Positions 1,049 to 62,646 of a DNA stretch of 64,000 bases are shown one piece after another. Position 1 is the stretch's first letter, and every line of letters starts with the position of its first letter. The stretch is taken from the NCBI GenBank assembly GCA_965217265.1, contig CBDCHP010000013.1:61709-125708 (forward strand). Reading direction: 5' to 3'. The notes beneath the pieces were generated by a model. The model had not been told where the DNA came from. It saw nothing but the letters and a program-made list of their open reading frames with translations, and did no database searches. The DNA is from Geminicoccaceae bacterium. GTDB taxonomy: Bacteria > Pseudomonadota > Alphaproteobacteria > Geminicoccales > Geminicoccaceae. The translations under genes were made by a program, and so were the position numbers.

Positions 1049-1074
1049 GGAACGTTGTTGACCGACTATGCGTT
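1049..1074 (+). promoter_or_regulatory. EcfG-type (general stress response ECF sigma) promoter, GGAAC-N17-CGTT
   Basis: GGAAC at 1049-1053, a 17-nt spacer, CGTT at 1071-1074, 34 nt upstream of ATG 1108. This matches the alphaproteobacterial EcfG/SigT consensus GGAAC-N16/17-CGTT. Confidence 0.6.
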
Positions 1075-1107
1075 AGTCTCGTTCCCCCGCAGCCAACGGA
1101 AGAAGCC

Positions 1108-2265
1108 ATGATCGACAAGGAACAACTCCAGACGTTGGCGTCGGCGCAGGGCGCACCGATCGTCTCGATCTACCTGCCGACGCACGAGCGCGGGCGGGAC
1201 ATCCGCCAGGACCCGATCCGGCTCAAGAACGCGCTCGCCTCGGTCACGGCGAAGCTGGAGGCGGCCGGTAAGCAGCGCAGCGAGATCGAGGTCCTGCTTC
1301 AGCCTGCCGCCGAACTGGTCGACGATCACCTCTACTGGCGCTACATGGGCAAGGGGCTCGCCTTGTTCCTGGGCGATGACCTGTTCCAGGCGCATAAGCT
1401 GCCGCTGGACGTGCGCGCGATCGACGCCGTCGGGCGTCGCCCGCACTTAAAGCCGCTCTTGCCGCTCCTCGCCCGCGACGGCGTCTACTACGCCCTGGCA
1501 CTCAGCGCCGAGACGACGCGGCTCTACGAGGGCTCGCGCTTCGGCCTCGACGAGATCGACACGGAGTTGCCGCAGGGCGTGAAGGAGGTCCGTGACGGCA
1601 GCACGATCGATCGGGGCACGCACGCCGCCCCGCAAGCCCGGCCGCATGTTAGCACCTCCGTCGGTATGCCGGGCTCGCAGGGCTTCGGCCGCACGGCCGA
1701 GGAAGAGCGCAAGGTCGAGCTGGTCGAGCACCTGCGCCGGGTCAACGCGGCGGTCGGCAAGCGCCTCGCCGGCGTCCAAGCGCCCGTCATCCCCGTAGGC
1801 CTCGCCGAGATCGTAGGCCAGTTGCACAACCTGCCGCGCGAGGTTGCCTACACCGACGAGGGCGTGCAGGCCGATCCCGCCCACATGTCGCCTGACGACC
1901 TGCACGCCAAGACCTGGGCCGTGGTCAAGGAGCGTTTCGCGGCCGAGCAGGCGGCGGCACTCGACCAGTTCCGCGCCCGCCAGGGCAGCGGCAAGGGTGC
2001 GATCAGCAACGATTTAGGCGACGTCGTGTCGGCGGCGGTCTTCGGCCGGGTCGATAAGCTGTTCGTCGCCACCGGCACCAACGTCTGGGGCACCTTCGAT
2101 CAAGCGGCCAGCAAGGCGACGGTCGAGGACGAGGACACGGCCGACAACGAGGACCTGCTCGACCTCGCCGCCGTGCAGACCCTGCTCCAGGGCGGCGAGG
2201 TCCACGCCCTGCCGCCGGAGCAGATGCCGGCCGAGGGGCCGCTGGCCGCGGTTTTACGCTATTAA
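1108..2265 (+). CDS. baeRF-like protein (bacterial archaeo-eukaryotic release factor-like family), function unknown
   Basis: ATG 1108 is preceded by GGAAGAAG. N-terminus MIDKEQLQTLASAQGAPIVSIYLPTHERGRDIRQDPIRLKNAL has the (V)SIYLPTH...IRLKN signature I associate with baeRF-family proteins. The acidic C-terminal part ends ...LAAVLRY. Family assignment is from memory, not from a search. Confidence 0.5.
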   Translation: MIDKEQLQTLASAQGAPIVSIYLPTHERGRDIRQDPIRLKNALASVTAKLEAAGKQRSEIEVLLQPAAELVDDHLYWRYMGKGLALFLGDDLFQAHKLPLDVRAIDAVGRRPHLKPLLPLLARDGVYYALALSAETTRLYEGSRFGLDEIDTELPQGVKEVRDGSTIDRGTHAAPQARPHVSTSVGMPGSQGFGRTAEEERKVELVEHLRRVNAAVGKRLAGVQAPVIPVGLAEIVGQLHNLPREVAYTDEGVQADPAHMSPDDLHAKTWAVVKERFAAEQAAALDQFRARQGSGKGAISNDLGDVVSAAVFGRVDKLFVATGTNVWGTFDQAASKATVEDEDTADNEDLLDLAAVQTLLQGGEVHALPPEQMPAEGPLAAVLRY

Positions 2266-2366
2266 GGTGTTTCCACGCCGGCCCTAAACACCATAAGTTG
2301 TACGGAGCGCCCGCCGCCGGGGCGGGCCGTGCCCCATGGGCAGCACTTTGCGGCAAGGAGACGACG

Positions 2367-2942
2367 TTGGAAGAACCGCTGCAGATCACGTTCCACAACC
2401 TCGAAGCTTCGAAGACCGCCGAGGCGGCCATCCGCGAGCGCTTCGCCAAGCTCGACCGTCTCTACGACCGGCTCACCGCCTGCCGCGTCGCGGTCGAGTG
2501 CGTCGCCAAGCAGCACCAGACCGGCAACGTCTACGACGTGCGCATCGACATGCTGGTGCCGGGCCAGGAACTCGTCGTCAGCAAGGCGCCGCACAAGGCG
2601 AAGGAGCGCTACGTCAACCCGGACGTCTACGTCGCGATCAGGGAGGCGTTCGACGCCGCCGAGCGGCAGTTGCTCGCCTTCAAGGACCAACTCCGCGGCG
2701 GGAGCAAGGACCACGGCCCCCCGCTCGTCCACGGGCAGGTCGCCGAGCTTCATCCCGAAGAGGATTACGGCTACCTGCTCGGCAACACCGGCGCCCTGAT
2801 CTACTTCCACCGCAACGCCTTGATGGAAGGCGCGTTCGAGGCGCTGAAGCGCGGCGACAAGGTACACTACGTCGAGGCCAAGGGCAGCGCCGACCCGTCC
2901 GCCACCAAGGTCTGGCCCGGCGCCGACCACCGCCTCGATTAG
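2367..2942 (+). CDS. HPF/RaiA-family ribosome-associated protein fused to a C-terminal cold-shock (CSD/OB) domain
   Basis: TTG 2367 lies 6 nt after AAGGAG (2355-2360). N-terminal LQITFHNLEASKTAEAAIRERFAKLDRLYDRLTACRVAVE...VYDVRIDMLVPGQELVV is the S30EA/HPF pattern. C-terminal HGQVAELHPEEDYGYLLGNTGALIYFHRNAL...GDKVHYVEAKGSADPSATKV is CSP-like. Confidence 0.7.
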   Translation: MEEPLQITFHNLEASKTAEAAIRERFAKLDRLYDRLTACRVAVECVAKQHQTGNVYDVRIDMLVPGQELVVSKAPHKAKERYVNPDVYVAIREAFDAAERQLLAFKDQLRGGSKDHGPPLVHGQVAELHPEEDYGYLLGNTGALIYFHRNALMEGAFEALKRGDKVHYVEAKGSADPSATKVWPGADHRLD

Positions 2943-3096: not shown

Positions 3097-5799
3097 ATGC
3101 CGTTGCGCCTCGCCAGTTTGTGCCTGCTCTTCCTCCTCCTCTGGCCCGCCTTGGGCCACGCCGGGGTCGTGGCGCGCGCCGACATCAAGGAGGGTCGCGC
3201 CCGGCTCGTCATCGAGTGGTCCGAGCCGGTCGAGGTGCAGCGTCGGGCGACGGCCAAGGGGTTCATGCTCACCTTCAGCCGGCCGCTGCCGGCGCTGGCC
3301 GATACGCTCGACCGGCTGCCGGGCGCGCTCGGCCGGCTGCAGATCCTGAACCCGACGGCGCTGCAACTCGTGCCAGCGCCGCACGTCACCGCCCGCGTCA
3401 ACCTGCTCGATAAGCGACGGCTCCTGATCGAGCTGTCGGCCGGGGGCGAGAAGGCTTCAAGCGACGTTGACGACGACGCGAAGGGCCCGCCGCGGCGGCT
3501 CGTGCCCGAGGTCACGGGCACCGACGACGGTCGCGCGGCCGGCAACGGCGCGGCGGGGGGCGCAAGCGATGCCGCCGCCGCGAAGGATCACCCCGACACG
3601 GTTAGGGCGCCGCGCCCTGAACGCCCGACGGTTGTGAAGCGCCTGTCGCTCGCGGCAGAAGCCACGGACGGAGGGGACGTCGACCTCGACTTTCGCGGCC
3701 TAGGCGGCACCCCGCCAGCGGCGGCGTTTGTACGCGGCGGCGAACTGCGCGTTCTATTCTTGGGCGAGGTCGCCGACATCGCGGCCGACCGTGCGGCCTT
3801 CGTTGAAGGTGCCGCCGACGTCATCCGTTCGGTACGGCAGGAGCCGCACCCACGCGCGACGATCCTGCGCTTCACCCTGGTCCGCCCGATCGAGGCGGTG
3901 ATGCGGCCGATCGAGGGCGGCTGGCGGCTGCGCCTGAGCGAGCGGCCGCTGCCGGCCAAGGCGACGCGGCTCGCGCCCTCGACCTCGGGCACGCTCAGGA
4001 TCGGCGCCGACGCGACCATTCCCTTCGTCGACCCAGTCGTCGGCGACCGGCTCGACGTCCTCTTGTTCGACGACGGGCCGATCATCCTGGAGCCCGCCGC
4101 CTACGTCGATTTCGAGGCCCTGCCCGCCTTGCAGGGCGGCGTCCTGCGCAGCAAGATCGACCGGCTCGACGTCGTCGGAACCAACGCCGGGGTGACCCTC
4201 TCCCGGCCCGGCGGCCTGCATTTGAGCGAACCGGGCGACGCCGCGTCCGGCCACACCCAATCGCCGGACGCCCGCCACGGCGCGGTCCCGCCGCCGGGGA
4301 CACCCTTGATCGGTCTCGCCGCGTTCGCGTCGCCCGACCCCGGCGCCTTCATCGCCCGACGGCAGGACTTGCTGCGCACGATCGGCGCCGACGCTTCGAA
4401 CGAGCGGCAGGGCCGCTGGGGCGACCTTGCCCGGCTGCACCTCGCGCACGGCCTCGCCGACGAGGCGAGCGGGCTGCTGGGGCCGAGCGCCGACGACGGC
4501 CTGGACGCGCTGCGCGGGGTGGCGGCAATCGTGGGTGGCAACACCGGCCTCGCCGCGACGAGGCTCGCGCCGTTCGCCGCCGTCGCCGACTCCGAACTCG
4601 ACCTCTGGCGCGGTGTGCTGGCGGCAAAAGAAGGCCGCTGGCGCGAGGCGGAGCGGCTGCTGGGCCCGGCCGAGGCGCTGTTGGGCACTTACCCGGCGAC
4701 CCTGAAGGCCGAGATCGGCCTACTGCGCGCCGAGGCCGCCCTTGAGACCGGCGCGATCGGTCGGGCGTTCACCCGCCTCCAAGCGCTGAAGGGGTCGGAC
4801 CTGACGCCCAAGGCGGGCGCCGAGCGCGCCCTGCTCGAAGCCCGCGCCCACGTCGCCGACGGCGACGCGAAGCGGGCGCAGGAATTGTGGCGCACGACGG
4901 CCGATGACGCACCCTTGGCCGAGCGGAGCGCGGCGCGGGCCGCCTTGGCCGCGAGCCTCTACGCCGCCGGCGAGATTAGCGCCGCCGACGCCGTCACCGT
5001 CTTGAACCCTGAAGCCCCCTCGTGGCGCGGGCTCGCCGAGGAAGCCGATCTCCTGCTGCGTTTGGCACGCCTGGAGCGCGACGCCAAGCACTACGGCGAC
5101 GCCCTCGACCACCTGCGCGACGCCGCCGAGCGTGCCGACGACCCGGCCCTGTCCCCGACGGCCGGGCGCGAGCTGGCATCGACACTGCGAGCGACCCTCG
5201 ACGCGACGGCCCCTCTCGCCCCGCTCGACCAGCTCTTGCTGCTGCGCCGCCACCAGGCCTATCTCCCCGACGACGCGGCGGGCGCCGACCTCGTGGCGAC
5301 CTTGGGCCGACGGTTGATCGCCGCCGGTTTCGCCGAGACCGGCAGGAGGCTGCTCGCGGGCGACACGGCCGAAGCTTCAGCCTTGAACGAAGCGAGTGGT
5401 TTTGCCCGCGTACCGGGACCGCGGGAGATCGAGCGGCTTTCGGCAGGCGAACTCCGCGACGCGGCGCGGGTCGCGTTCGCGGCCGAGGATTGGCGTGCAG
5501 TGGTCCAGGCCGCCCGCCCGCTCGTCACGGCCCTCGACCCGACGCAGACGCTCGACGCCGACGACGGCCTGCTCGTTGTGCAGCTCGCGATCGCCGAGGC
5601 GCGCGTCGGCAATGCCGCGGCCGCACGTAAGCTCACCGCCCGCTTCGCGCCGGCGCTCGACGAGCCGCGCTACCGGGCCCTCCTGAGCCTCGCCGCCGAC
5701 ACCCCCGACCTCGCCGGCGGGGTCCAGACGGCGCTGGGGGGCCTGGAGACGTGGCGGGCCAAGCAACGGCAACTCGACGCGCTCAAGGTGCTCCCCTGA
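3097..5799 (+). CDS. large secreted Ala/Leu-rich protein with helical-repeat (TPR-like) C-terminal half, function unknown
   Basis: ATG 3097 gives MPLRLASLCLLFLLLWPALGHAG, a Sec-type signal peptide. The N-terminal third has two beta-rich modules separated by a charged low-complexity linker. The C-terminal ~500 aa are Ala/Leu/Arg-rich helical repeats. GC3-rich codons run throughout. Confidence 0.6.
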   Translation: MPLRLASLCLLFLLLWPALGHAGVVARADIKEGRARLVIEWSEPVEVQRRATAKGFMLTFSRPLPALADTLDRLPGALGRLQILNPTALQLVPAPHVTARVNLLDKRRLLIELSAGGEKASSDVDDDAKGPPRRLVPEVTGTDDGRAAGNGAAGGASDAAAAKDHPDTVRAPRPERPTVVKRLSLAAEATDGGDVDLDFRGLGGTPPAAAFVRGGELRVLFLGEVADIAADRAAFVEGAADVIRSVRQEPHPRATILRFTLVRPIEAVMRPIEGGWRLRLSERPLPAKATRLAPSTSGTLRIGADATIPFVDPVVGDRLDVLLFDDGPIILEPAAYVDFEALPALQGGVLRSKIDRLDVVGTNAGVTLSRPGGLHLSEPGDAASGHTQSPDARHGAVPPPGTPLIGLAAFASPDPGAFIARRQDLLRTIGADASNERQGRWGDLARLHLAHGLADEASGLLGPSADDGLDALRGVAAIVGGNTGLAATRLAPFAAVADSELDLWRGVLAAKEGRWREAERLLGPAEALLGTYPATLKAEIGLLRAEAALETGAIGRAFTRLQALKGSDLTPKAGAERALLEARAHVADGDAKRAQELWRTTADDAPLAERSAARAALAASLYAAGEISAADAVTVLNPEAPSWRGLAEEADLLLRLARLERDAKHYGDALDHLRDAAERADDPALSPTAGRELASTLRATLDATAPLAPLDQLLLLRRHQAYLPDDAAGADLVATLGRRLIAAGFAETGRRLLAGDTAEASALNEASGFARVPGPREIERLSAGELRDAARVAFAAEDWRAVVQAARPLVTALDPTQTLDADDGLLVVQLAIAEARVGNAAAARKLTARFAPALDEPRYRALLSLAADTPDLAGGVQTALGGLETWRAKQRQLDALKVLP

Positions 5800-5832: not shown

Positions 5833-8793
5833 TCACGCGGCGGGCAGGCCGAAGAAGTCGCCGTCGTCGATCTGGCCCGGGCGCACGTCCAAGAGTACGA
5901 CGCGCTCGACAACCTCGCCTGCCGGCCGTCCGCCCGTCGCCGCCGCGTAGAACTCGATGACGCTGGCGTCACCGTTGCCGAACACGGCGTAGGCATCGAA
6001 ATCGAGACCGCTCACGTCGATCTTATCGCGGTCGTTCTCGAAATCGCGGACGACCTCCGCACCGCCATCGAGGCTGTTGTCGGCGAAGACGAAGACGTCG
6101 ACGCCCTTGCCGCCGGCGTAGACGTCGCTGCCTTCGCCGCCGCCCAGGACGTCCGCACCCTTGAAGCCGGCGAGGACGTCGTCGCCCCCGCCGCCGTCGA
6201 GTTTATCGTCGCCGTTGCCGCCGAGGAGAACGTCCTTGCCAGCACCACCGAAGAGGGCATCCCTGCCGTCGTTGCCGAGGATCAGGTCGTCGCCGCCGCG
6301 GCCGTCGATGGTGTTCGGCTTGTTGTTGCCGACGATGAGGTCGTTGCCGGGCGTGCCCGTGGCGTCGCGCTCGCGGGGGCCGAGCACGGTGAAACTGGGT
6401 TCGGCCGGCCCCTCCGGCGCAAGGTCGAGGCCGACCAGGACCGGGTCGTGGTCGGACGAGCGAAAGGCGTCCGGCCGGACGAGATCGAACGCCTCGTTCG
6501 ATTTCGCCTCGAACGATCGTTCGCCGGCGTCGACTACGTCGTCGTTGTAGTCGAGAACCTGCGGCTCGTCGGCGTTGATGTGCCAGTCCGCCGCCCCGGT
6601 CACTTGGTCGAGCAGTTCGGCGTTGGCGAGCGCGTAGTCGAGCGAGCCCCACTGGCCGCTGAAGCGATAGCCGTAGGTGAAGTCGCCGTCGTCGAAGGCG
6701 TCGTTGGCGAGGTCGGTGTAGCCCTGCCCTTCCAGCGCCCGGATCGGGTCCTCCAGCGCGTACGAATTGAGGTCGCCGACGATGAGGCGGTCGGCGTCCT
6801 CCGTCCCGGTCGGGTTCGTCGCCAGCCACTCGGCCAGCTTGATCGCGGCCCCTTCGCGGGTGAAGTTATTGTTGCCCTGCCCGTCGCCCTGATCGGCGTC
6901 GCGCGCGTCGCCGGAGAGCGAGCCCTTCGACTTGAAGTGGTTGACGGCGAGCGTGAACTCAGCACCGGTGTCGATCTCCTCGAACGTCGCCGCGAGCGCC
7001 GGCCGGTTGAGCTGTCGGCCGGAAGCGACGGGATCGGTGAAGGACGGGTCGTCGAGGACGGCGGCCTCGGTGCCGGGCGCCAAGCGCACCACGTCGGGCT
7101 TGTAGATCATGCCGACCGTGATCGCGTCCGTGCCGATCGTGCCAGGCCCGGCGTCGACGAAGCTGTAGGTCGGGGCACCGGTCTCGGCGTTGAGCGCGCT
7201 CACGATCGAGCGGATCGCGCTGTCGGCCCCGAAGCCATTGTTCTCAAGCTCGATCAACCCGACCACGTCGGCGTCGAGTTCGCTTAAAGCCGCGACGATC
7301 TTGTCCTCTTGCAGCGCGAACTCAGGCCCGCTGTCAGCGCCGCGGGCGTCGTTCGTGCCGTCGTCGATCGTCGTGAAGTAGTTGAGGACGTTGAAGCTCG
7401 CGACCTTCAAGCCGCCGCCGACGTCGGGCGGGCTCGTCGGACGCGGGTCGCTCTCGAAGTCGACGGTCTCGTCGAGGCGGACCCGGTAATTGCCGAAGTC
7501 GAAATCGAGGATGCCGGTGAGGCCGGCAACGCCGCCGCCGCCGCGCACGAGCGGGTTCTCGGGCACTAGGTAGTCGGGGATCCAGACGTTCTGGTCGTTG
7601 GTGCCATCGTCGATCAGGATGCGGTTGAGGTCGTTGACGTCCTGCACCGCGTCGGCGGCGTCGCCCGGCAGCGCCACCTGCGTCGGCTGGGCGAGGCGGC
7701 CGTCGTCGGTGTAGGGGTTGGCGGCGCTCAAGTGCAGGGTACCGAAGCGCTCAAGCCCGAACAGTTGCGTTACCGTCAGTTCCTGCGGCAAGGTCGCAAC
7801 CATGCCCTCGAAGGCTTCGAGCGGGTTGTCGGCCGCCCTGAAGAACGGTTGATCGAGCGGCAGCACGATCGTGGCCGGGGTGATCGCGGCGTCGGCGCCC
7901 CCGACGACCTCGATCGAGGTGACGTCGGAGAGGCCGGTCTTGTCGAAGAACTCCTCGACCGTGCCATCGACCCGCACCACGTCGCCGACCCCGACGCCGG
8001 CGGTCGAGTCGCCCAAGAAAACGAACAGGCCTTCGGACGTCGCCGGGTCGCCGTCCTCGTCGGCGGTCTGCTCCTGGACGAAGACGCCGCCGAGCGTGTC
8101 GGCCGGATCGTCGGGACTGGTGCGGAAGTCGGCCGTGACGACGGCCTCGATCGTGACGGTCCGTCCCGCGAGCGGGCTGACGCCGCCGTCGCCTTGGACC
8201 TCGCTGATCAGGACCGCACCGGCCGGGGGCGGCGGGGGCGGAACGACGCCGTTCGCGGCGCCCGGCGTCGGGGTCGCGGCCTGAAAATCGCCGGTGCCGT
8301 CGGGGACGCGCCCCAACGACGCGTTGTCGTCGTCGCCGTTTAAGTCCTCGTCGTACTGGGTCGTCTGCCCTAGGGCCGCGAGCAGGTCCGCGTCGTCGGC
8401 GTCGTTGGTGCCGCAGACGACGGCGTCGACGAGGCCTCGCGTCGTCGGTGTCCCGCCGGCGGGAAAATCGCCGTCGTAGAGCGCCACGGCGTCAGGGCCG
8501 TTTTGCAAGACGCCGTTGGCAAACGTCACCTCGACGCCCGCGACCCCAGGGTTGCCGGCGAGGAAATACCCGTTTGCGTCGAGATTCTGGCCGTCGAGGT
8601 CGATGACGCGATACGCTTGATCGCCGTTGCCGTTGAAGAGAACGAGGCTCTGATCGTCGAGCGCGGCGTTCGCCGGCCCGAACAGTTCGACGAATTCGGC
8701 GGTGTCGACGCCGGGGATCTTGGCGTCGATCTCGTTGACGACGATGCCGGTCTCGGCACGCGGATCGGTTGCCATAGTCTCAAGCGCTCCCAC
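5833..8793 (-). CDS. ExeM/NucH-family extracellular nuclease (LTD + OB-like + endonuclease/exonuclease/phosphatase domain) with C-terminal RTX calcium-binding repeats
   Basis: N-terminal IVVNEIDAKIPGVDTAEFVELFG is lamin-tail-domain-like. VLISEVQGDGGVSPLAGRTVTIEAVV...GGVFVQEQTADEDGDPATSEGLFVF is the ExeM/NucH hallmark. LKVASFNVLNYF...SDHDPVLVGLDL is an EEP nuclease domain. GNDLIVGNNKPNTIDGRGGDDLILGNDGRDALFGGAGKDVLLGGNGDDKLDGGGGDDVLAGFKGADVLGGGEGSDVYAGGKGVD are GGxGxD nonapeptides. No N-terminal signal peptide. Confidence 0.8.
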   Translation of the reverse strand: MGALETMATDPRAETGIVVNEIDAKIPGVDTAEFVELFGPANAALDDQSLVLFNGNGDQAYRVIDLDGQNLDANGYFLAGNPGVAGVEVTFANGVLQNGPDAVALYDGDFPAGGTPTTRGLVDAVVCGTNDADDADLLAALGQTTQYDEDLNGDDDNASLGRVPDGTGDFQAATPTPGAANGVVPPPPPPAGAVLISEVQGDGGVSPLAGRTVTIEAVVTADFRTSPDDPADTLGGVFVQEQTADEDGDPATSEGLFVFLGDSTAGVGVGDVVRVDGTVEEFFDKTGLSDVTSIEVVGGADAAITPATIVLPLDQPFFRAADNPLEAFEGMVATLPQELTVTQLFGLERFGTLHLSAANPYTDDGRLAQPTQVALPGDAADAVQDVNDLNRILIDDGTNDQNVWIPDYLVPENPLVRGGGGVAGLTGILDFDFGNYRVRLDETVDFESDPRPTSPPDVGGGLKVASFNVLNYFTTIDDGTNDARGADSGPEFALQEDKIVAALSELDADVVGLIELENNGFGADSAIRSIVSALNAETGAPTYSFVDAGPGTIGTDAITVGMIYKPDVVRLAPGTEAAVLDDPSFTDPVASGRQLNRPALAATFEEIDTGAEFTLAVNHFKSKGSLSGDARDADQGDGQGNNNFTREGAAIKLAEWLATNPTGTEDADRLIVGDLNSYALEDPIRALEGQGYTDLANDAFDDGDFTYGYRFSGQWGSLDYALANAELLDQVTGAADWHINADEPQVLDYNDDVVDAGERSFEAKSNEAFDLVRPDAFRSSDHDPVLVGLDLAPEGPAEPSFTVLGPRERDATGTPGNDLIVGNNKPNTIDGRGGDDLILGNDGRDALFGGAGKDVLLGGNGDDKLDGGGGDDVLAGFKGADVLGGGEGSDVYAGGKGVDVFVFADNSLDGGAEVVRDFENDRDKIDVSGLDFDAYAVFGNGDASVIEFYAAATGGRPAGEVVERVVLLDVRPGQIDDGDFFGLPAA

Positions 8794-20530: not shown

Positions 20531-21853
20531 TCAGCCGTTCGGCGGGGGCTTGAGGCGCTGCATCAGCCGTCCCCGCGCCGCTTTGGGCAGGGCGACCCGG
20601 ACCCTGGTCCCCTCCTCGCCGTCCTCACGGGTGAGCATCCGGCCTTGCTGGTGCAGCCAGGAGAGGACGTCGCCTTGGTCGTGACCGAGGGCGAGGTCAA
20701 GTACCTCGTCGTCCTCGGCGAGCACGGCGTCGACGCGGGTCAAGAGGGTTTCGATCCCGACCCCGCTCAGGGCCGACACGGGCACCACGTCGGGCCTGGC
20801 GGCGGTGTCGGCGTCGAGGCGCGCCAACTCGTCGGGCTTCAGACGGTCGATCTTGTTCCACACCTCGATCAGCCGATGCTCGGGCGCGCCCGGATCGACG
20901 CCGAGGTCGCGCAGGACCCCGATCACGTCGCGCGCCTGCGCGTCGGCGGCGGCGTGGCTGATGTCGCGCACGTGCAAGATCAAGTCGGCGGACAAGACCT
21001 CTTCGAGCGTCGCACGAAAGGACGCTACAAGCGTCGTTGGGAGGTCGGTGATGAAGCCCACCGTGTCGGAGAGGATGACGTTGCGGCCCGAGGGCAGCTT
21101 GACCACGCGCATGGTCGGGTCGAGGGTGGCGAACAACTGGTCGGCCGCGAACACCTCGGCCCCGGTCACGCGGTTGAACAGGGTCGACTTGCCGGCGTTG
21201 GTGTAGCCGACCAGCGCCACGACCGGGTAGGGCACGCGCCCCCGCGCCTCGCGGTGCAGACCGCGGGTGCGCTTCACGTCCTCCAGGTCGCGCTTGAGCC
21301 CGGCGATCCGGTCGTCGATCCGGCGGCGGTCGAGCTCGATCTGCCGTTCGCCAGGGCCACCCATGAAGCCGCCGCCGCCGCGCTGCCGCTCCAGGTGGGT
21401 CCAGGAGCGAACGAGGCGCGAGCGCTGGTAGGTGAGCGCCGCGAGATCGACCTGCATCACGCCCTCGCGCGTGCGGGCGCGCTCGCCGAAGATCTCCAGG
21501 ATGAGGCCGGTACGGTCGATGACCTTGGTCTTCCAGGCCCGCTCCAGGTTGCGCTGCTGCACAGGGCTGAGTTGTCCATCGACGACGACGACGGTGACGG
21601 GTTCGGCTTCGAGGGTGACGCCGATCTCGCCGACCTTGCCGCTGCCGAGCAGCGTCGCGGGCCGTAGGCCGCGCAAAGGCGCCATCGCCGTGGCGGCGAC
21701 GTCGAGGCCGATCGCGGCGGCGAGCCCGACCGCCTCGTCGAGCCTGGCCTCGGCGCGCTCGGCCGCCGCCGCGTCGTCGGCGAGGTAAGGATGGACGACG
21801 AACGCACGCTCGTCGAGCGCCGCGTTCGCGCCGTCGGCCGTCTCTGGGTTCAG
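20531..21853 (-). CDS. hflX: GTPase HflX (start uncertain: proposed CTG 21853 overlapping the hfq stop; first ATG is at 21685)
   Basis: G-domain motifs [18 protein letters not shown]. The HflX N-terminal domain similarity ([10 protein letters not shown]...[11 protein letters not shown]) extends upstream of ATG 21685, with no in-frame ATG/GTG/TTG there. Confidence 0.85.
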
Positions 21854-22119
21854 TTGCGCTCGCCCTCGGGCTGCCGGGCCTCGTCCTGCGCCGGATCGTA
21901 GAGCCGCACCGCCGCGGACGGCATCACCGTCGAGACCGCGTGCTTGTAGACCAATTGGACGTGGCCGTCGCGGCGAAGCAGCAGGCAGAAGTTGTCGAAC
22001 GAACTGATATTGCCCTGCAATTTGACGCCGTTGATCAGAAAAATCGTCACGGGTATCTTGTTCTTGCGGACGTAGTTCAAGAACACGTCCTGCAAATTTT
22101 GTTGTTTTTCGGCCGCCAT
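21850..22119 (-). CDS. hfq: RNA chaperone Hfq
   Basis: [59 protein letters not shown] is a canonical Sm1/Sm2 Hfq sequence. Confidence 0.97.
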
Positions 22120-39511: not shown

Positions 39512-40525
39512 TCAGGTCTCGACGAGAATGTCGGTGTAGAGTTCCGAGGCGTCCGGCTCCGGGCTGTCCTGGGCGAAGCGGGCGGCGTCGTTGATAACCT
39601 CGCGGATCTCCTTATCGATCGCCTTCAGTTCGTCCTCGGCCGACCCGGCCTCGATCATGCGCCGGCGCAGGTTCTCGATCGGGTCGCGCTGCTCGCGCAT
39701 CTGCTGAACCTCGTCGCGCGAACGGTACTTGGCCGGATCGGACATCGAGTGGCCGCGGTAGCGGTACGTCATCGCCTCGAAGATGTGCGGGCCGTCGCCG
39801 CCGCGGACCTTGGCGACGATCTCCTTCGCCCTGTCATGGATCGCGAGCACGTCCATGCCGTCGACCTGCTCGCCGGGGATGCCGTAGGCCGTGCCGCGCT
39901 CGCAGAGGTGCTGCCCCCCGGCGGCGGCGCGCGTCACCGACGTGCCCATGCCGTAGCGGTTGTTCTCAATGATGTAGATGACCGGCAGCTTCCAAAGGGC
40001 CGCCATGTTGAAGCTCTCGTAGACCTGCCCCTGGTTGGTGGCGCCGTCGCCCAGGTAGACGATGCAGATGCCGCCGTCCTCGCGGTACTTGTGCGCGAAG
40101 GCGAGCCCGGTGCCGAGCGGCACCTGTGCCGCGACGATGCCGTGCCCGCCGTAGAACCCCTTGTCGCGGGCGAACATGTGCATCGAGCCGCCCTTGCCCT
40201 TGGAGTAGCCGGTGGCGCGGCCGGTGAGTTCGGCCATCACGCCGCGCGGGTCCATGTCGCAGACCAGCATGTGGCCGTGGTCGCGATACCCGGTGATGAC
40301 GCTGTCGCCGGGCTCCAGCGCGGTCTGCACGCCGACCGCGACGGCTTCCTGGCCGATGTAGAGGTGGCAAAAGCCGCCGATCAGGCCCATGCCGTAGAGT
40401 TGCCCTGCCTTCTCCTCGAAGCGGCGGACCAGAAGCATCCGCTTGTAGAAGTCCATCAACGTTTCGGCGTCGTACGACCCTACCTCCGCCGCCGCGCCGT
40501 TGGTCTTGCTCTCGCTTGAAGCCAT
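39512..40525 (-). CDS. pdhA: pyruvate dehydrogenase E1 alpha subunit
   Basis: TPP-binding GDGATNQG...NNRYGMGT motif; 337 aa; first gene of pdhABC. Confidence 0.95.
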
Positions 40526-45239: not shown

Positions 45240-46007
45240 TTAGGCGCCGCCGCCCGCTTGATAGATGCGCCAGAAATTCCCGGACTCAAGGCAAGCCCCG
45301 CCGACGAGCGCACCGTCCACGTCGCCCTGCGCCATGATCTCGGCGGCGTTGTCCGGCTTGACCGAACCGCCGTAGAGCAGCGCCAGCGCGTCGCCGCCCT
45401 CGATCCGGTCTTGCACCATGCGGCGCAACTCGGCGTGGATCGAGGCAATCTTGTCCAGGCTCGGCGTCTTGCCGGTGCCGATCGCCCAGACCGGCTCGTA
45501 AGCGATCACGAGGTTCGCCGGGTTGGCGCCCATCGGCAGGCCGTGCGCCAACTGTCGGCGCAGAACGTCAAGCGTGGATCCGGCCTCGTACTCGGCCTCG
45601 GTCTCGCCGATGCACAAGGTCACGAGCAGGCCGGCGTCGAGGGCGGCCCGCGCCTTCGCCTGGATCAGGGCGTCGCCCTCGCCCAGGCCGTGCCGGCGCT
45701 CGCTGTGGCCGAGGATGACCGCCGTGGCGCCGGCGTCCTTCAACATCGCCGGGCTGATCGAGCCGGTGAAGGCGCCGCTCTGGCGCTCGTGCGCGTCCTG
45801 CCCGCCGACGACGATGCCCGTGCCGTTCAGCCGGGCCGCCACCTGCTGGATGAGCGTCGCGGGCGGGAACACGCCCAGCGTGCCGGAGAGCTTCGCCGCC
45901 CGCTCGGCGAGGCTGCCGGCCAGCTTCAGCCCGTCGGCGCGCAGCCCGTTCATCTTCCAATTGCCGAATACGACCGGTCGCGCCGGCCCCTTGCCTGTCT
46001 CGTCCAT
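45240..46007 (-). CDS. tpiA: triose-phosphate isomerase
   Basis: GNWKMNG, VILGHSERR, AYEPVWAIGTG motifs. Confidence 0.96.
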   Translation of the reverse strand: MDETGKGPARPVVFGNWKMNGLRADGLKLAGSLAERAAKLSGTLGVFPPATLIQQVAARLNGTGIVVGGQDAHERQSGAFTGSISPAMLKDAGATAVILGHSERRHGLGEGDALIQAKARAALDAGLLVTLCIGETEAEYEAGSTLDVLRRQLAHGLPMGANPANLVIAYEPVWAIGTGKTPSLDKIASIHAELRRMVQDRIEGGDALALLYGGSVKPDNAAEIMAQGDVDGALVGGACLESGNFWRIYQAGGGA

Positions 46008-53762: not shown

Positions 53763-54556
53763 ACGACGTCCTGGCCGAGATCTGCGCCGTCAAGCGCGAC
53801 CACGTTCGAGCGAAGAAGGCGCGGACAAGCGAGGCCGACCTGCTCGCCGCGGCCCGCGACGTCGAGGCACCGCGCGGCTTCGCCGCGGCGCTGCGGCGGG
53901 CGACGGAGGCGGGGGGCTTTGGCCTCATCGCCGAGATTAAGAAGGCGAGCCCGAGCCGGGGCGTGATCCGCGCCGACTTCGACCCGGCAGCACTGGCCCG
54001 CGCCTACGCCGCCGGCGGGGCCGCCTGCCTCTCGGTCCTGACCGACGCGCCCTACTTCCAGGGCAACGACGCCTATCTCGGCGCGGCGCGGGCGGCGGTG
54101 GCGCTGCCGTGCCTGCGGAAGGACTTCATGCTCGACCCCTACCAAGTTGTCGAGGCCAGGGCGCTCGGGGCGGACTGCATCCTCGTCATCCTGGCCGCCG
54201 TGGACGACGCGCTGGGCTCCGACCTCGTCCGGGCGGCGCACGACCTTGGCATGGACGTGCTGGCCGAGGCGCACGACGCGAACGAGCTTGATCGAGCCCT
54301 CAAGCTCGACGCCGACCTGATCGGGATCAACAACCGCGACCTGAAGACGCTCAAGGTCGATTTGGGCACGACCGAGCGATTGGCGGCTATCGTGCCCCCC
54401 GATCGCGTCCTCGTCGCCGAGAGCGGCCTTGAGGCCCACGCCGACTTGGAACGCCTAGCCCTGGTCGGCGCGCGGGCGTTCCTGGTCGGCGAGTCGCTGA
54501 TGCGCGCCGACGACGTCGCGGCGGCGACCAGGGCGCTCCTGGGCCGGGCGGCGTGA
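53759..54556 (+). CDS. trpC: indole-3-glycerol phosphate synthase
   Basis: [32 protein letters not shown] motifs. Confidence 0.95.
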
Positions 54557-55029
54557 GCGGCCTCACCCACATCGACGCCGAGGGCAACGCCGTCATGGTC
54601 GACGTCTCGGCCAAGGACGTGACCGGGCGGACCGCGACCGCGAAGGGTCTGGTCCGCATGGCGCCGGCGACCCTAGAACGGATCGAGGCGCGCGGCTTCA
54701 AGAAGGGCGACGTGCTCAGCATCGCCCAACTGGCCGGGATCATGGGGGCGAAGCGCACCGCCGACTTGATCCCCTTGTGCCACCCGCTGCCGCTCGCCTC
54801 GGTCAAGGTGACGCTGCGGGCTCTGGCCGAAGAAGCGGCGGTCGAGATCGAGGCGACCTGCAAGGTGGACGGCAAGACCGGCGTCGAGATGGAGGCGCTG
54901 ACCGCCGTCGGCGTCGCGGCGCTCACCGTCTACGACGTGTGCAAGGCGGTCGACAAGGACATGCGCATCACCGACATCCGCCTCGTCCACAAGGCCGGCG
55001 GCCGCTCCGGCACCTACCGGGCCGAGTGA
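54553..55029 (+). CDS. moaC: cyclic pyranopterin monophosphate synthase MoaC
   Basis: [46 protein letters not shown]-like motifs. Confidence 0.95.
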
Positions 55030-56334: not shown

Positions 56335-57015
56335 TTGCTCACCCAGCGCCAGTTGCAGCTCTTGCAGTTCATCCATGCCTACCAGACCGAGAAGGGCGTG
56401 CCGCCCTCTTTCGACGAGATGCGGGCATCCCTCAGGCTCCGCTCCAAGTCAGGTATCCACCGACTGATCTCGGGGCTGGAGGAGCGCGGCTACATCCGTC
56501 GCCTCGCCTACCGCGCCCGGGCGATTGAGGTGGTCCGCCCGCCGCTCGAAGTGACCGAGGGCGGCGCTAAGGGGGGGGCCAAGGTCGTGCGCCCCAACTT
56601 CAAGCCGCAACGCCACGAGGACGAGGCGGCGTCGCTCAACCGGCTGCCGCTGCTCGGCCGAATCGCCGCCGGCACGCCGATCGAGGCGCTCGCCGACGGC
56701 AGCACCTCGGTCGACGTGCCGAGCCTGCTCATGGGCGAGGGCGAGCACTACGTCGTCCAGGTCTTAGGCGAGTCGATGATCGAGGCCGGCATCCAGGACG
56801 GCGACCTCGCCGTCATCCAGCGCGCCGACGAGGCGCAGAGCGGCGAGATCGTCGTGGCGCTCATCGACGACCGCGAGGTAACGCTCAAGCGCCTGCGGCG
56901 CAAGCACGCCTCGATCGCGCTGGAGCCGGCCAACCCCGCCTTCGAGACCCGCATCTTCGGCCCGCAGCGGGTCAAGGTGCAAGGCCGCCTCGTTGGGCTG
57001 ATGCGTCGCTACTAA
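56335..57015 (+). CDS. lexA: transcriptional repressor LexA
   Basis: LTQRQLQLLQFI...PPSFDEM wHTH domain, an Ala-Gly cleavage region (RIAAGTP), and an S24 peptidase domain (GESMIEAGI...VTLKRL). TTG start behind GAGGA. Confidence 0.95.
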   Translation: MLTQRQLQLLQFIHAYQTEKGVPPSFDEMRASLRLRSKSGIHRLISGLEERGYIRRLAYRARAIEVVRPPLEVTEGGAKGGAKVVRPNFKPQRHEDEAASLNRLPLLGRIAAGTPIEALADGSTSVDVPSLLMGEGEHYVVQVLGESMIEAGIQDGDLAVIQRADEAQSGEIVVALIDDREVTLKRLRRKHASIALEPANPAFETRIFGPQRVKVQGRLVGLMRRY

Positions 57016-57161: not shown

Positions 57162-57186
57162 GGAACAGCAACCTGACAAGTCCGTT
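57162..57186 (+). promoter_or_regulatory. EcfG-type general stress promoter, GGAAC-N16-CGTT
   Basis: GGAAC 57162-66, a 16-nt spacer, CGTT 57183-86, 58 nt upstream of ATG 57244. Confidence 0.6.
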
Positions 57187-57243: not shown

Positions 57244-58218
57244 ATGGTCACGACCTATACCGAGCGCGGTCCGGGACATACCGATACCGACTACACCGAT
57301 GTCCGCACCACCCACGTCGATCGCGGTCCGACGCTGACGAGCAACGTCCGCCGCGTCTCCTGGGGCGCCATCCTCGCCGGCACGATCCTCGTCTTGACCA
57401 TTCAGGTCATGCTCGGCCTGCTCGGTCTGGGCATCGGCCTTGCCTCGATCGACCCGGCGGCGAACGACACGCCGTCCGCTTTCACCCTCACCTCGACCGC
57501 CGGGATCTGGGCGATCGTGACGGTGCTGATCGCCACCTTCGTCGGCGCCTGGGTCGCCGCCCGCCTCGCCGGCAGCCCGAGCAACACCGACGGCCTCCTG
57601 CACGGCATCGTGACCTGGGCGCTCTCGACCCTGGTCGCCGTCTGGCTGCTTACCAGCGGTGCCAGCGCCATCATCAGCGGCGCGTTCGGCGCGCTCGGCA
57701 ACTCGATCCAGGGCATCACCAGCGCCGTCCAATCGGTGGCGCCGAACTCGCTCTCGGCCCTGCCGCCCGGCCTGGAGCAGCCGGCGCGGCAATTGCTGCA
57801 GCAGGGCACGAACCAAGCCCAGCAGACGGGCCAGCAGGCGCAGCAGCAAGCGCAGCAGGCAGCGCAGGACGTGCGTCAGGCAACCGGCGAGCAGAACATT
57901 ACCGCCGCCATGGGCGAGGTTCTGGCTGGCGTGCAGGAGGATGCCTCGCAAGAAGAGCGGCAGGCGGCCCTGCAGGTCATCTCCGATCAGGCCGGCATCT
58001 CGGAGCAGCAGGCCGAAGAGCGCCTGACTGAGTTCCAGCAGTCCTACGATCAGGCCGTCGCCGAGGTCGAGCAGCGCACGCAGCAGGCGGCTGACGCCCT
58101 GTCCGGCACGGCGTTCGCCACCTTCGTTGCCCTCCTCTTGGGCCTCATCGCCGGCGCCATCGGCGGCCGTCTCGGCCGCCCGTCGCACACCGTCGAGGCC
58201 GAAAATTACGCGACCTGA
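57244..58218 (+). CDS. hypothetical integral membrane protein with Gln-rich coiled segment
   Basis: ATG 57244 behind AAGGAAG. About four TM helices (residues ~40-170 of the product), then QQGTNQAQQTGQQAQQQAQQAAQD and an acidic helical region, then a final TM helix (FATFVALLLGLIAGAIGG). I recognise no family. Confidence 0.6.
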   Translation: MVTTYTERGPGHTDTDYTDVRTTHVDRGPTLTSNVRRVSWGAILAGTILVLTIQVMLGLLGLGIGLASIDPAANDTPSAFTLTSTAGIWAIVTVLIATFVGAWVAARLAGSPSNTDGLLHGIVTWALSTLVAVWLLTSGASAIISGAFGALGNSIQGITSAVQSVAPNSLSALPPGLEQPARQLLQQGTNQAQQTGQQAQQQAQQAAQDVRQATGEQNITAAMGEVLAGVQEDASQEERQAALQVISDQAGISEQQAEERLTEFQQSYDQAVAEVEQRTQQAADALSGTAFATFVALLLGLIAGAIGGRLGRPSHTVEAENYAT

Positions 58219-62136: not shown

Positions 62137-62646
62137 ATGCGCATCGCTGTCTTCTTGGCCCTGTTCCTGGCCTTTGCAGCGCCTTTGCGGGCGCAGGATG
62201 CCAGTGCCCAGGCCTATGTCGACGCCACGGCGGGGGACGGCCTGCTGTTGACCGAGATGAGCCAGCAGGTTTTGGACCGCGTTCCGCGCGAGGCCGTTAC
62301 CGAGGTCGCGACCGAGACGATCGCCGCCAACCGGACGAACGCGATCATCCTGGGCAGCATCGCCGAGACCAAGGGGCTGGATATGCCGACCTCCCTCGAC
62401 GACGGGCGCACCGCCGTGCTGGCCCAGATCGCCGACGCCGACAACGAGAATGTCGCCCAGGTCTACGCCGACTTGCAGGTCAAGACGCACGAAGACGCGA
62501 TTGCCACGACCGAACGCTACCTCGCCGAGGGCGAGGACGAGGAGCTCAAACGCTTCGCCGACGACGCGCTGCGCCAACTGCAAGGTGGTCTCGAAGACGC
62601 GCAGGCGCTGCAAAAAGAAGTCACGGCGTCAAACGATCAGCAGTAA
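62137..62646 (+). CDS. DUF4142-domain periplasmic protein
   Basis: Signal peptide MRIAVFLALFLAFAAPLRAQ. A helical protein with the two-repeat pattern (...EMSQQVL..., ...QVKTHEDAI...FADDALRQLQ) that I associate with DUF4142. Confidence 0.6.
   Translation: MRIAVFLALFLAFAAPLRAQDASAQAYVDATAGDGLLLTEMSQQVLDRVPREAVTEVATETIAANRTNAIILGSIAETKGLDMPTSLDDGRTAVLAQIADADNENVAQVYADLQVKTHEDAIATTERYLAEGEDEELKRFADDALRQLQGGLEDAQALQKEVTASNDQQ

Follow-up and report, generated by a model that had tools for sequence, protein, structure and literature searches.

A Balon and HPFcold gene pair behind a conserved EcfG-type promoter: a predicted ribosome hibernation operon in a Geminicoccaceae bacterium

We found a gene pair for two ribosome hibernation factors, of the Balon and HPFcold families, behind a general-stress-type promoter in a 64,000-nt stretch of a Geminicoccaceae genome (contig CBDCHP010000013.1 of assembly GCA_965217265.1). 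This stretch, called the window here, has a G+C content of ~69% and 46 predicted open reading frames (ORFs); the two genes of interest are named ORF1 and ORF2. The locus is probably a fresh example of a described system, a two-gene Balon plus HPFcold ribosome hibernation operon. The family membership of both products, the linkage of their genes and the conservation of the promoter are demonstrated in this analysis, and the conserved general-stress promoter seems to be the sole element absent from earlier reports. The original prediction, made from the letters of the DNA, had proposed an uncharacterised ribosome-silencing, rescue or quality-control system induced by general stress. Its ribosome-silencing idea holds. 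ORF1 belongs to the Balon family and ORF2 to the HPFcold family. The word ‘uncharacterised’ is outdated, because both protein families have ribosome-bound structures (2024 and 2026) and the linkage of baeRF and HPF genes, a prediction of 2019, has meanwhile been documented. Thus, the record can be corrected: baeRF_family3 proteins are Balon-type hibernation factors, HPF fusions to a cold-shock domain (CSD) are HPFcold proteins, and the locus is no unknown system.

ORF1 (1108-2265, + strand) starts with ATG and encodes a 385-residue protein of baeRF_family3 with the three-domain organization of aeRF1. A longer version of the frame could start at 958, and the EcfG-type promoter described below falls within this extension; the longer start is not used, because the homologues begin at the position of the ATG at 1108. 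They share this start position with an N-terminus of the MFxR.../MITKEQL type. The peptide VSIYLPTHERGRDIRQDPIRLKN, quoted earlier as the reason for suspecting a baeRF protein, corresponds to residues 19-41 of ORF1. A hidden Markov model search bore out this suspicion, with Pfam PF18845 (baeRF_family3) matching ORF1 at 7.4e-28. The Balon of Psychrobacter urativorans itself scores 4.8e-30 with PF18845 and is therefore in the same family as ORF1. The earlier statement that baeRF proteins have no established function has to be dropped, since baeRF_family3 includes Balon, which was characterised structurally and genetically (PMC10901736). Known Balons are P. urativorans AOC03_06830 and the mycobacterial Rv2629 and Msmeg1130, with the Protein Data Bank (PDB) entries 8RD8, 8RDV, 8RDW and 8V9J-L. 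ORF1 matches the NCBIfam model NF052287 (“AOC03_06830 family ribosome hibernation factor”) at 5.9e-38 with the whole model covered, and phmmer aligned its residues 5-385 end to end with the Balon chain 8rd8_B (5.4e-15).

The predicted structure of ORF1 points in the same direction. An AlphaFold (AF2) model made from 66 sequences has a predicted local distance difference test score (pLDDT) of 85.2 and a predicted template modelling score (pTM) of 0.76. In a Foldseek search with this model, the top five matches are all Balon chains (E 1e-23 to 2.5e-17, TM ~0.6); those of P. urativorans Balon (8rdw/8rd8/8rdv, E ~1e-23) come first and mycobacterial Balons follow. Only after the Balons do aRF1, eRF1 and Pelota appear, with E values from 1e-14 to 1e-5. 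The structural comparison with eRF1 and Pelota that had been suggested thus gives an aeRF1-like fold for ORF1, but ribosome-bound Balon is the closest structure. Neither the GGQ motif of peptide release nor the NIKS motif of stop-codon recognition was found in ORF1. Among its 66 relatives, NIKS is found in none and GGQ tripeptides occur in only seven, at scattered, non-aligned positions. The earlier idea of a rescue or quality-control role is disfavoured by the lack of GGQ in ORF1, as far as it would involve peptide release. At the position of the catalytic loop, the model has a 28-residue low-confidence or disordered loop (residues 166-193), and this region is poorly conserved. Such a loop is in keeping with the lasso loop of Balon, which is described as poorly ordered. 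The C-domain carries a two-strand insert (strands 327-331 and 336-339). The loop and the strands may be equated with the lasso loop/bL27 trap and the β-hairpin insert of Balon, an equation made by alignment only. From its sequence and its model, ORF1 is predicted to be a Balon-like hibernation factor.

ORF2 (2367-2942, + strand) encodes a 191-residue protein and starts with TTG. This start agrees with the MEEPL/MDEPL N-terminus of the homologues, and a Shine-Dalgarno sequence AAGGAG (2355-2360, + strand), identical in the close relative L087, lies 6 nt before it. The protein consists of an S30AE/HPF domain (residues ~1-110), a short linker (~112-120) and a cold-shock OB domain (~121-184). Both domains of the fusion that had been proposed were recovered by Pfam and by structural matching: S30AE (PF02482) at residues 5-110 with 3.3e-14, and CSD (PF00313) at residues 122-183 with 3.8e-6, where 27.1 bits stand just above the cut-off of 27.0. 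In the AF2 model of ORF2 (pLDDT 81; low in the linker at residues 112-117), the N-domain matches RaiA/HPF structures (TMt 0.84-0.92), with the RaiA chain 8rd8_D as the best structural match, and the C-domain matches CspC, CspE and CspA (TMt ~0.8). This fusion is not uncharacterised either: it is HPFcold, which has been solved on the Coxiella ribosome (PMC13392368). The solved protein is Coxiella burnetii CBU_0020, with the PDB entries 9T0Z and 9TZE. phmmer aligned residues 1-179 of ORF2 with residues 6-175 of the CBU_0020 chain 9t0z_9 (6.9e-24), and BLASTP gave 32% identity (E 1e-31). The aromatic YGY and YFH positions of the CSD, which are those of nucleic-acid binding, are conserved across 46 relatives. 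In the family alignment, G135, G142 and F147 of the CSD are invariant and Y146, H148, R149 and N150 nearly so. ORF2 is thus HPFcold-like, and its binding to rRNA and the 30S subunit is predicted from these comparisons.

The promoter motif GGAAC-N17-CGTT was confirmed as an exact match at 1049-1074 (+ strand), with the -35 box GGAAC at 1049-1053, a 17-nt spacer and the -10 box CGTT at 1071-1074, ending 33 nt before the ATG of ORF1. It fits the published EcfG consensus GAAC-N16,17-C/GGTT (PMC4814048), as well as a further published consensus, GGAAC-N16-CGTT with a flexible -10 box. A motif of the form GGAAC-N16/17-(C/G/T)GTT is located at -55 to -64 from the Balon start in each of the 13 non-redundant pair loci whose upstream sequence was available, against a background expectation of 0.002 matches per locus. 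In these 13 loci it is found neither elsewhere in the 150 nt upstream nor on the opposite strand. The spacers between the boxes fall into nine unrelated clusters; therefore, the promoter boxes are conserved while the intervening sequence is not. Where Balon stands alone in loci that are alphaproteobacterial or likely so, the motif is found in six of nine (five of the eight labelled Alphaproteobacteria, plus the unlabelled locus L084), and it is found in none of the 71 loci not labelled Alphaproteobacteria. HPFcold genes standing alone have the motif at an equivalent distance in 9 of 48 loci. The HPFcold copies on plasmids or chromids of Sinorhizobium fredii, Methylocella tundrae and Azospirillum oryzae have neither a Balon neighbour nor an EcfG box. 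The earlier claim of a general-stress promoter thus gains strong comparative support from the pair loci, and the dependence on EcfG is predicted from the same sequences.

A second exact motif, GGAAC-N16-CGTT, exists in the window at 57162-57186 (+ strand), in the intergenic region after lexA (56335-57015). It lies 58 nt upstream of the ATG of an ORF (57244-58218) encoding a 324-residue protein that is rich in glutamine, has predicted membrane segments and lacks any Pfam domain; it may be another general-stress target. With a relaxed -10 box, GGAAC-N16-TGTT is found at 40625-40601 (- strand), intergenic after a DivIC-like gene and 76 nt upstream of a pyruvate dehydrogenase E1-alpha-like gene (39512-40525, - strand); this may be a chance match. 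Each of the three relaxed matches found in the 64 kb lies between genes, in the same orientation as a gene. In Sphingopyxis granuli, two cspA-infA pairs, each encoding a cold-shock protein and a paralogue of IF-1, are strongly down in an ecfG1 ecfG2 mutant (PMC7083833 supplement). They add a further output related to translation to the general stress response of Alphaproteobacteria.

We investigated how far the gene pair is conserved. The order Balon→HPFcold is kept in four of the five closer relatives examined, with unrelated flanking genes: a Geminicoccaceae metagenome-assembled genome (53% identity), L086, L087 (a 4.5-Mb ENA contig; 90% and 97% identity) and the cultured Benzoatithermus flavus. 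The fifth (P0010) has Balon alone. Seen from the other gene, 28 of 81 metagenome HPFcold loci have a Balon gene directly upstream on the same strand, as do 13 of the 43 HPFcold loci whose upstream sequence reaches 1.3 kb or more. The Balon-HPFcold gap is 14-56 nt in the relatives and reaches 101 nt (2266-2366) only in the window and L087. Conservation of the pair thus holds for the near clade, and the pair is frequent around HPFcold; it does not extend to distant baeRF3 loci, as described below. Conservation of the neighbouring genes ends with L087, and they are not part of the Balon-HPFcold unit. A conserved third gene was ruled out, as the 900-residue protein encoded downstream and a 208-residue upstream ORF, the latter having no Pfam domain, recur only in L087.

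These observations can be joined in a mechanism. Under general stress, phosphorylated PhyR would free EcfG from NepR, and we infer that transcription would then start from the GGAAC-N17-CGTT element. The transcript would encode the Balon-family protein and, after the 101-nt spacer, the HPFcold-type protein with its own strong Shine-Dalgarno sequence. The ORF1 product would occupy the A site together with EF-Tu(GDP), independently of mRNA and with the peptide not released. The HPF domain of ORF2 would fill the mRNA/tRNA channel of the 30S subunit, and its CSD would clamp the anti-Shine-Dalgarno 3′ end of 16S rRNA. Both products would jointly silence 70S ribosomes and shield them from nucleases until the stress is over. 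That both could occupy a ribosome simultaneously is suggested by analogy with 8RD8, where Balon and RaiA are seen together on the ribosome (PMC10901736), a precedent for co-binding.

The chances are about even that the PhyR-NepR-EcfG pathway directly programmes hibernation, by way of the Balon→HPFcold operon or of either gene alone under the same promoter, with both products on one 70S ribosome. If this is true, one 70S ribosome would be blocked at once at its A site, in its mRNA channel and at its anti-Shine-Dalgarno end, in a dimer-free, long-term hibernation state, and Balon would have its first defined transcriptional control. Ribosome hibernation would sit inside the alphaproteobacterial general stress regulon if the EcfG-type promoter drives Balon and HPFcold. 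This regulatory link is testable and would tell when Balon gets made; B. flavus, as a cultured carrier of the pair, is suited to testing it.

Several points weigh against a stress-regulated hibernation operon. ORF1 is only 26% identical to Balon by BLASTP (E 6e-21), and it scores 131.3 bits with NF052287, where the equivalog cut-off is 330. With the Rv2629-family model NF052289 it likewise stays below the equivalog cut-off (21.8 bits vs 320). By these scores, ORF1, though a homologue, belongs to neither of the curated equivalog groups and represents a divergent subfamily. Balon touches the decoding centre with an HP motif of its N-domain; a candidate for this motif, the His-Pro in the THREHP sequence of P. 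urativorans, aligns with THERGR-D of ORF1, which has Arg-Asp for His-Pro; the TH and QDPIxLKN blocks flanking this site are common to ORF1 and Balon and nearly invariant in the family. So far, Balon and an HPFcold have not been seen bound at the same time. Among distant baeRF3 loci (32-41% identity), HPFcold is nearby in only 1 of 80, that of the cyanobacterium Lyngbya aestuarii BL J (L078). There the order is reversed, with HPFcold at 3291-3941 and Balon at 4001-5146, which suggests that this pair was assembled independently. General conservation of the pair across baeRF3 was thus ruled out. As for the promoter, the GGAAC...CGTT motif is not above chance within the window, with 2 found against 1.0 expected and at least two in 25 of 100 shuffles. 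The significance of the promoter comes from its conservation at related loci. Other sigma factors of the extracytoplasmic function (ECF) group use similar AAC/CGT-type promoters. A Pfam scan of nine window ORFs (158-287 residues) for phyR, nepR and ecfG brought up none of the three genes, and the other Pfam-scanned ORFs were promoter-proximal or flanking genes and no regulator candidates. The presence of the sigma factor in the source genome is therefore assumed from taxonomy. Lastly, the 101-nt gap with its stable GC hairpin could lower or stop read-through to ORF2.

This hairpin bears on the strongest alternative, in which ORF1 and ORF2 are separate units. The hairpin would end the ORF1 transcript and ORF2 would have its own promoter, or the upstream box would serve another ECF sigma factor or none. 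The 7-bp hairpin noted earlier between the genes was confirmed at 2309-2327 (+ strand), with fully complementary arms (2309-2315 and 2321-2327) and a 5-nt loop. Such a perfect GC stem in a 101-nt gap is what separate units might look like. HPFcold, moreover, often stands alone with its own EcfG-like box. The chance-level motif count in the window and the lack of ecfG and phyR among the ORFs scanned also speak for this alternative. However, a terminator or riboswitch was rejected for the missing T tract and the lack of a terminator call, and the folding of the spacer is no stronger than that of shuffled sequences (z = -0.78). In L087 (95% identity), two positions of the stem are broken with no compensation, and the relatives have the shorter gaps given above. 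The hairpin is not a repeated element, and Rfam has no match anywhere in the window. A function for the hairpin is unsupported; at most, it could modulate read-through or mRNA stability. Neither a sigma-70-like nor an EcfG-like box was found in the spacer from which ORF2 would have to be transcribed separately, whereas the motif upstream of ORF1 is positionally conserved at every pair locus. On balance, separate units or a different use of the box are unlikely, and co-transcription from the upstream promoter is the arrangement we prefer.

Alternatively, ORF2 might be a regulator of specific mRNAs, with its CSD mainly acting as a free RNA chaperone on mRNAs in the cold or under other stress. 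The structural likeness of the CSD to CspA, CspC and CspE and its retained RNP-like aromatic residues would suit this role, as would the cspA-infA pairs in the general-stress regulon of Sphingopyxis. However, the homology of ORF2 to HPFcold, in which the CSD sits on the anti-Shine-Dalgarno sequence, extends along the entire protein, and the short linker tethers the CSD to an HPF domain that binds the 30S subunit. Within the HPFcold family, conservation is reported to be highest at the residues that contact the anti-Shine-Dalgarno sequence (PMC13392368). We regard a free chaperone as improbable, and a CSD held on the 30S subunit is preferred. Least probable of all is that ORF1 is an active release or rescue factor like aeRF1 or Pelota that resolves stalled ribosomes, merely accompanied by ORF2: its aeRF1-like fold and the significant Foldseek matches to aRF1, eRF1 and Pelota would allow this, and Burroughs and Aravind discussed a rescue function for some of the baeRF families (PMC6514570), but ORF1 lacks GGQ and NIKS, the few GGQ tripeptides of its relatives are non-homologous, its catalytic-loop region is of low confidence and poorly conserved, Balon structures fit it better than any release factor, and Balon homologues inhibit translation with the nascent peptide retained.

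The remaining features of the locus and its surroundings are as follows. An 11-nt inverted repeat (2262-2272/2286-2296, + strand; 91% complementary, 13-nt loop) extends across the stop codon of ORF1; its arms are identical in L087 and its loop has three substitutions, in a comparison of two sequences only. Directly after the ORF2 stop codon, there is an imperfect GC-rich inverted repeat (2955-2993, + strand) with a GGCCCC/GGGGCC core and 15-nt arms of 73% complementarity. It was not called in the terminator scan and is a possible candidate for the transcript end. The 900-residue protein encoded downstream (3097-5799, + strand) has an N-terminal signal-peptide-like segment and no Pfam match, and was found only in L087 (81% identity). 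It is followed by a gene for a 986-residue protein (5833-8793, - strand), conserved in L087, with a weak lamin-tail-domain match, an endonuclease/exonuclease/phosphatase domain and RTX calcium-binding repeats; this is probably a secreted nuclease or phosphatase. Genes at 21850-22119 (- strand), 45240-46007 (- strand), 54553-55029 (+ strand) and 62137-62646 (+ strand) include hfq, tpiA, moaC and one for a DUF4142 protein, among others. The region around the module is ordinary chromosome, and no mobile-element signatures were found near it. A defence or toxin system was ruled out, with zero PADLOC hits.

Each element of the locus can be compared with a known system. The promoter resembles those of the EcfG (PhyR-NepR-EcfG) regulon in its -35 GGAAC, its 16-17-nt spacer, its (C/G)GTT -10 box and its short distance upstream. 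It differs in its targets, as the portions of the published regulons that we searched name neither Balon nor HPFcold, and EcfG dependence here is a prediction. No HPF or baeRF entries were seen in the parts of the Sphingopyxis and Methylobacterium general-stress regulon tables that were covered, where such genes may stand as hypothetical. Likewise, we found no literature that ties Balon, HPFcold or hibernation to EcfG or to the general stress response of Alphaproteobacteria, in a search for which subscription journals and hypothetical-protein tables are a blind spot.

The baeRF-HPF operon as such is not new. Burroughs and Aravind described the operonic link in 2019 and proposed non-catalytic A-site inhibitors acting with HPF (PMC6514570). 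Helena-Bueno et al. (2024) then saw Balon on ribosomes with RaiA and EF-Tu and reported that Balon genes most often adjoin raiA (PMC10901736). A 2025 preprint reported chimeric HPFs, Csp fusions among them, which often lie next to Balon (bioRxiv 10.1101/2025.11.04.686544). Our locus shares with the operons of 2019 and the adjacencies of 2025 the gene linkage and the logic of a non-catalytic A-site blocker combined with an HPF; the EcfG-type promoter and the fixed Balon→HPFcold order of our pair-carrying loci were not described there. In the Coxiella HPFcold CBU_0020, the HPF domain occupies the cleft of the 30S subunit, the CSD binds 16S rRNA at its anti-Shine-Dalgarno end, and carriers of HPF-CSD fusions include Alphaproteobacteria; that study mentions Balon in passing and describes no adjacent Balon gene (PMC13392368). 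ORF2 resembles this protein in its S30AE domain, short linker and CSD, in its length (191 residues vs 183 in chain 9t0z_9), in the level of identity given above and in its CSD aromatics, and differs in that its gene lies behind a Balon gene without a recognisable promoter of its own.

The closest comparison for ORF1 is Balon itself, homologues of which inhibit translation and keep the nascent peptide; a recovery phenotype was shown as well (PMC10901736). ORF1 differs from Balon in its low identity, its score below the equivalog cut-off and its Arg-Asp in place of the His-Pro of P. urativorans. Its partner is an HPF-CSD fusion rather than RaiA, its host is alphaproteobacterial, and its gene has an EcfG-type promoter. 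The two proteins share PF18845, a similar length, an alignment from end to end, a three-domain aeRF1-like fold and the loss of GGQ and NIKS. In both cases the gene adjoins one of the HPF/RaiA family in a stress context, and the two proteins may also share a long loop that replaces the catalytic loop and a two-strand insert in the C-domain.

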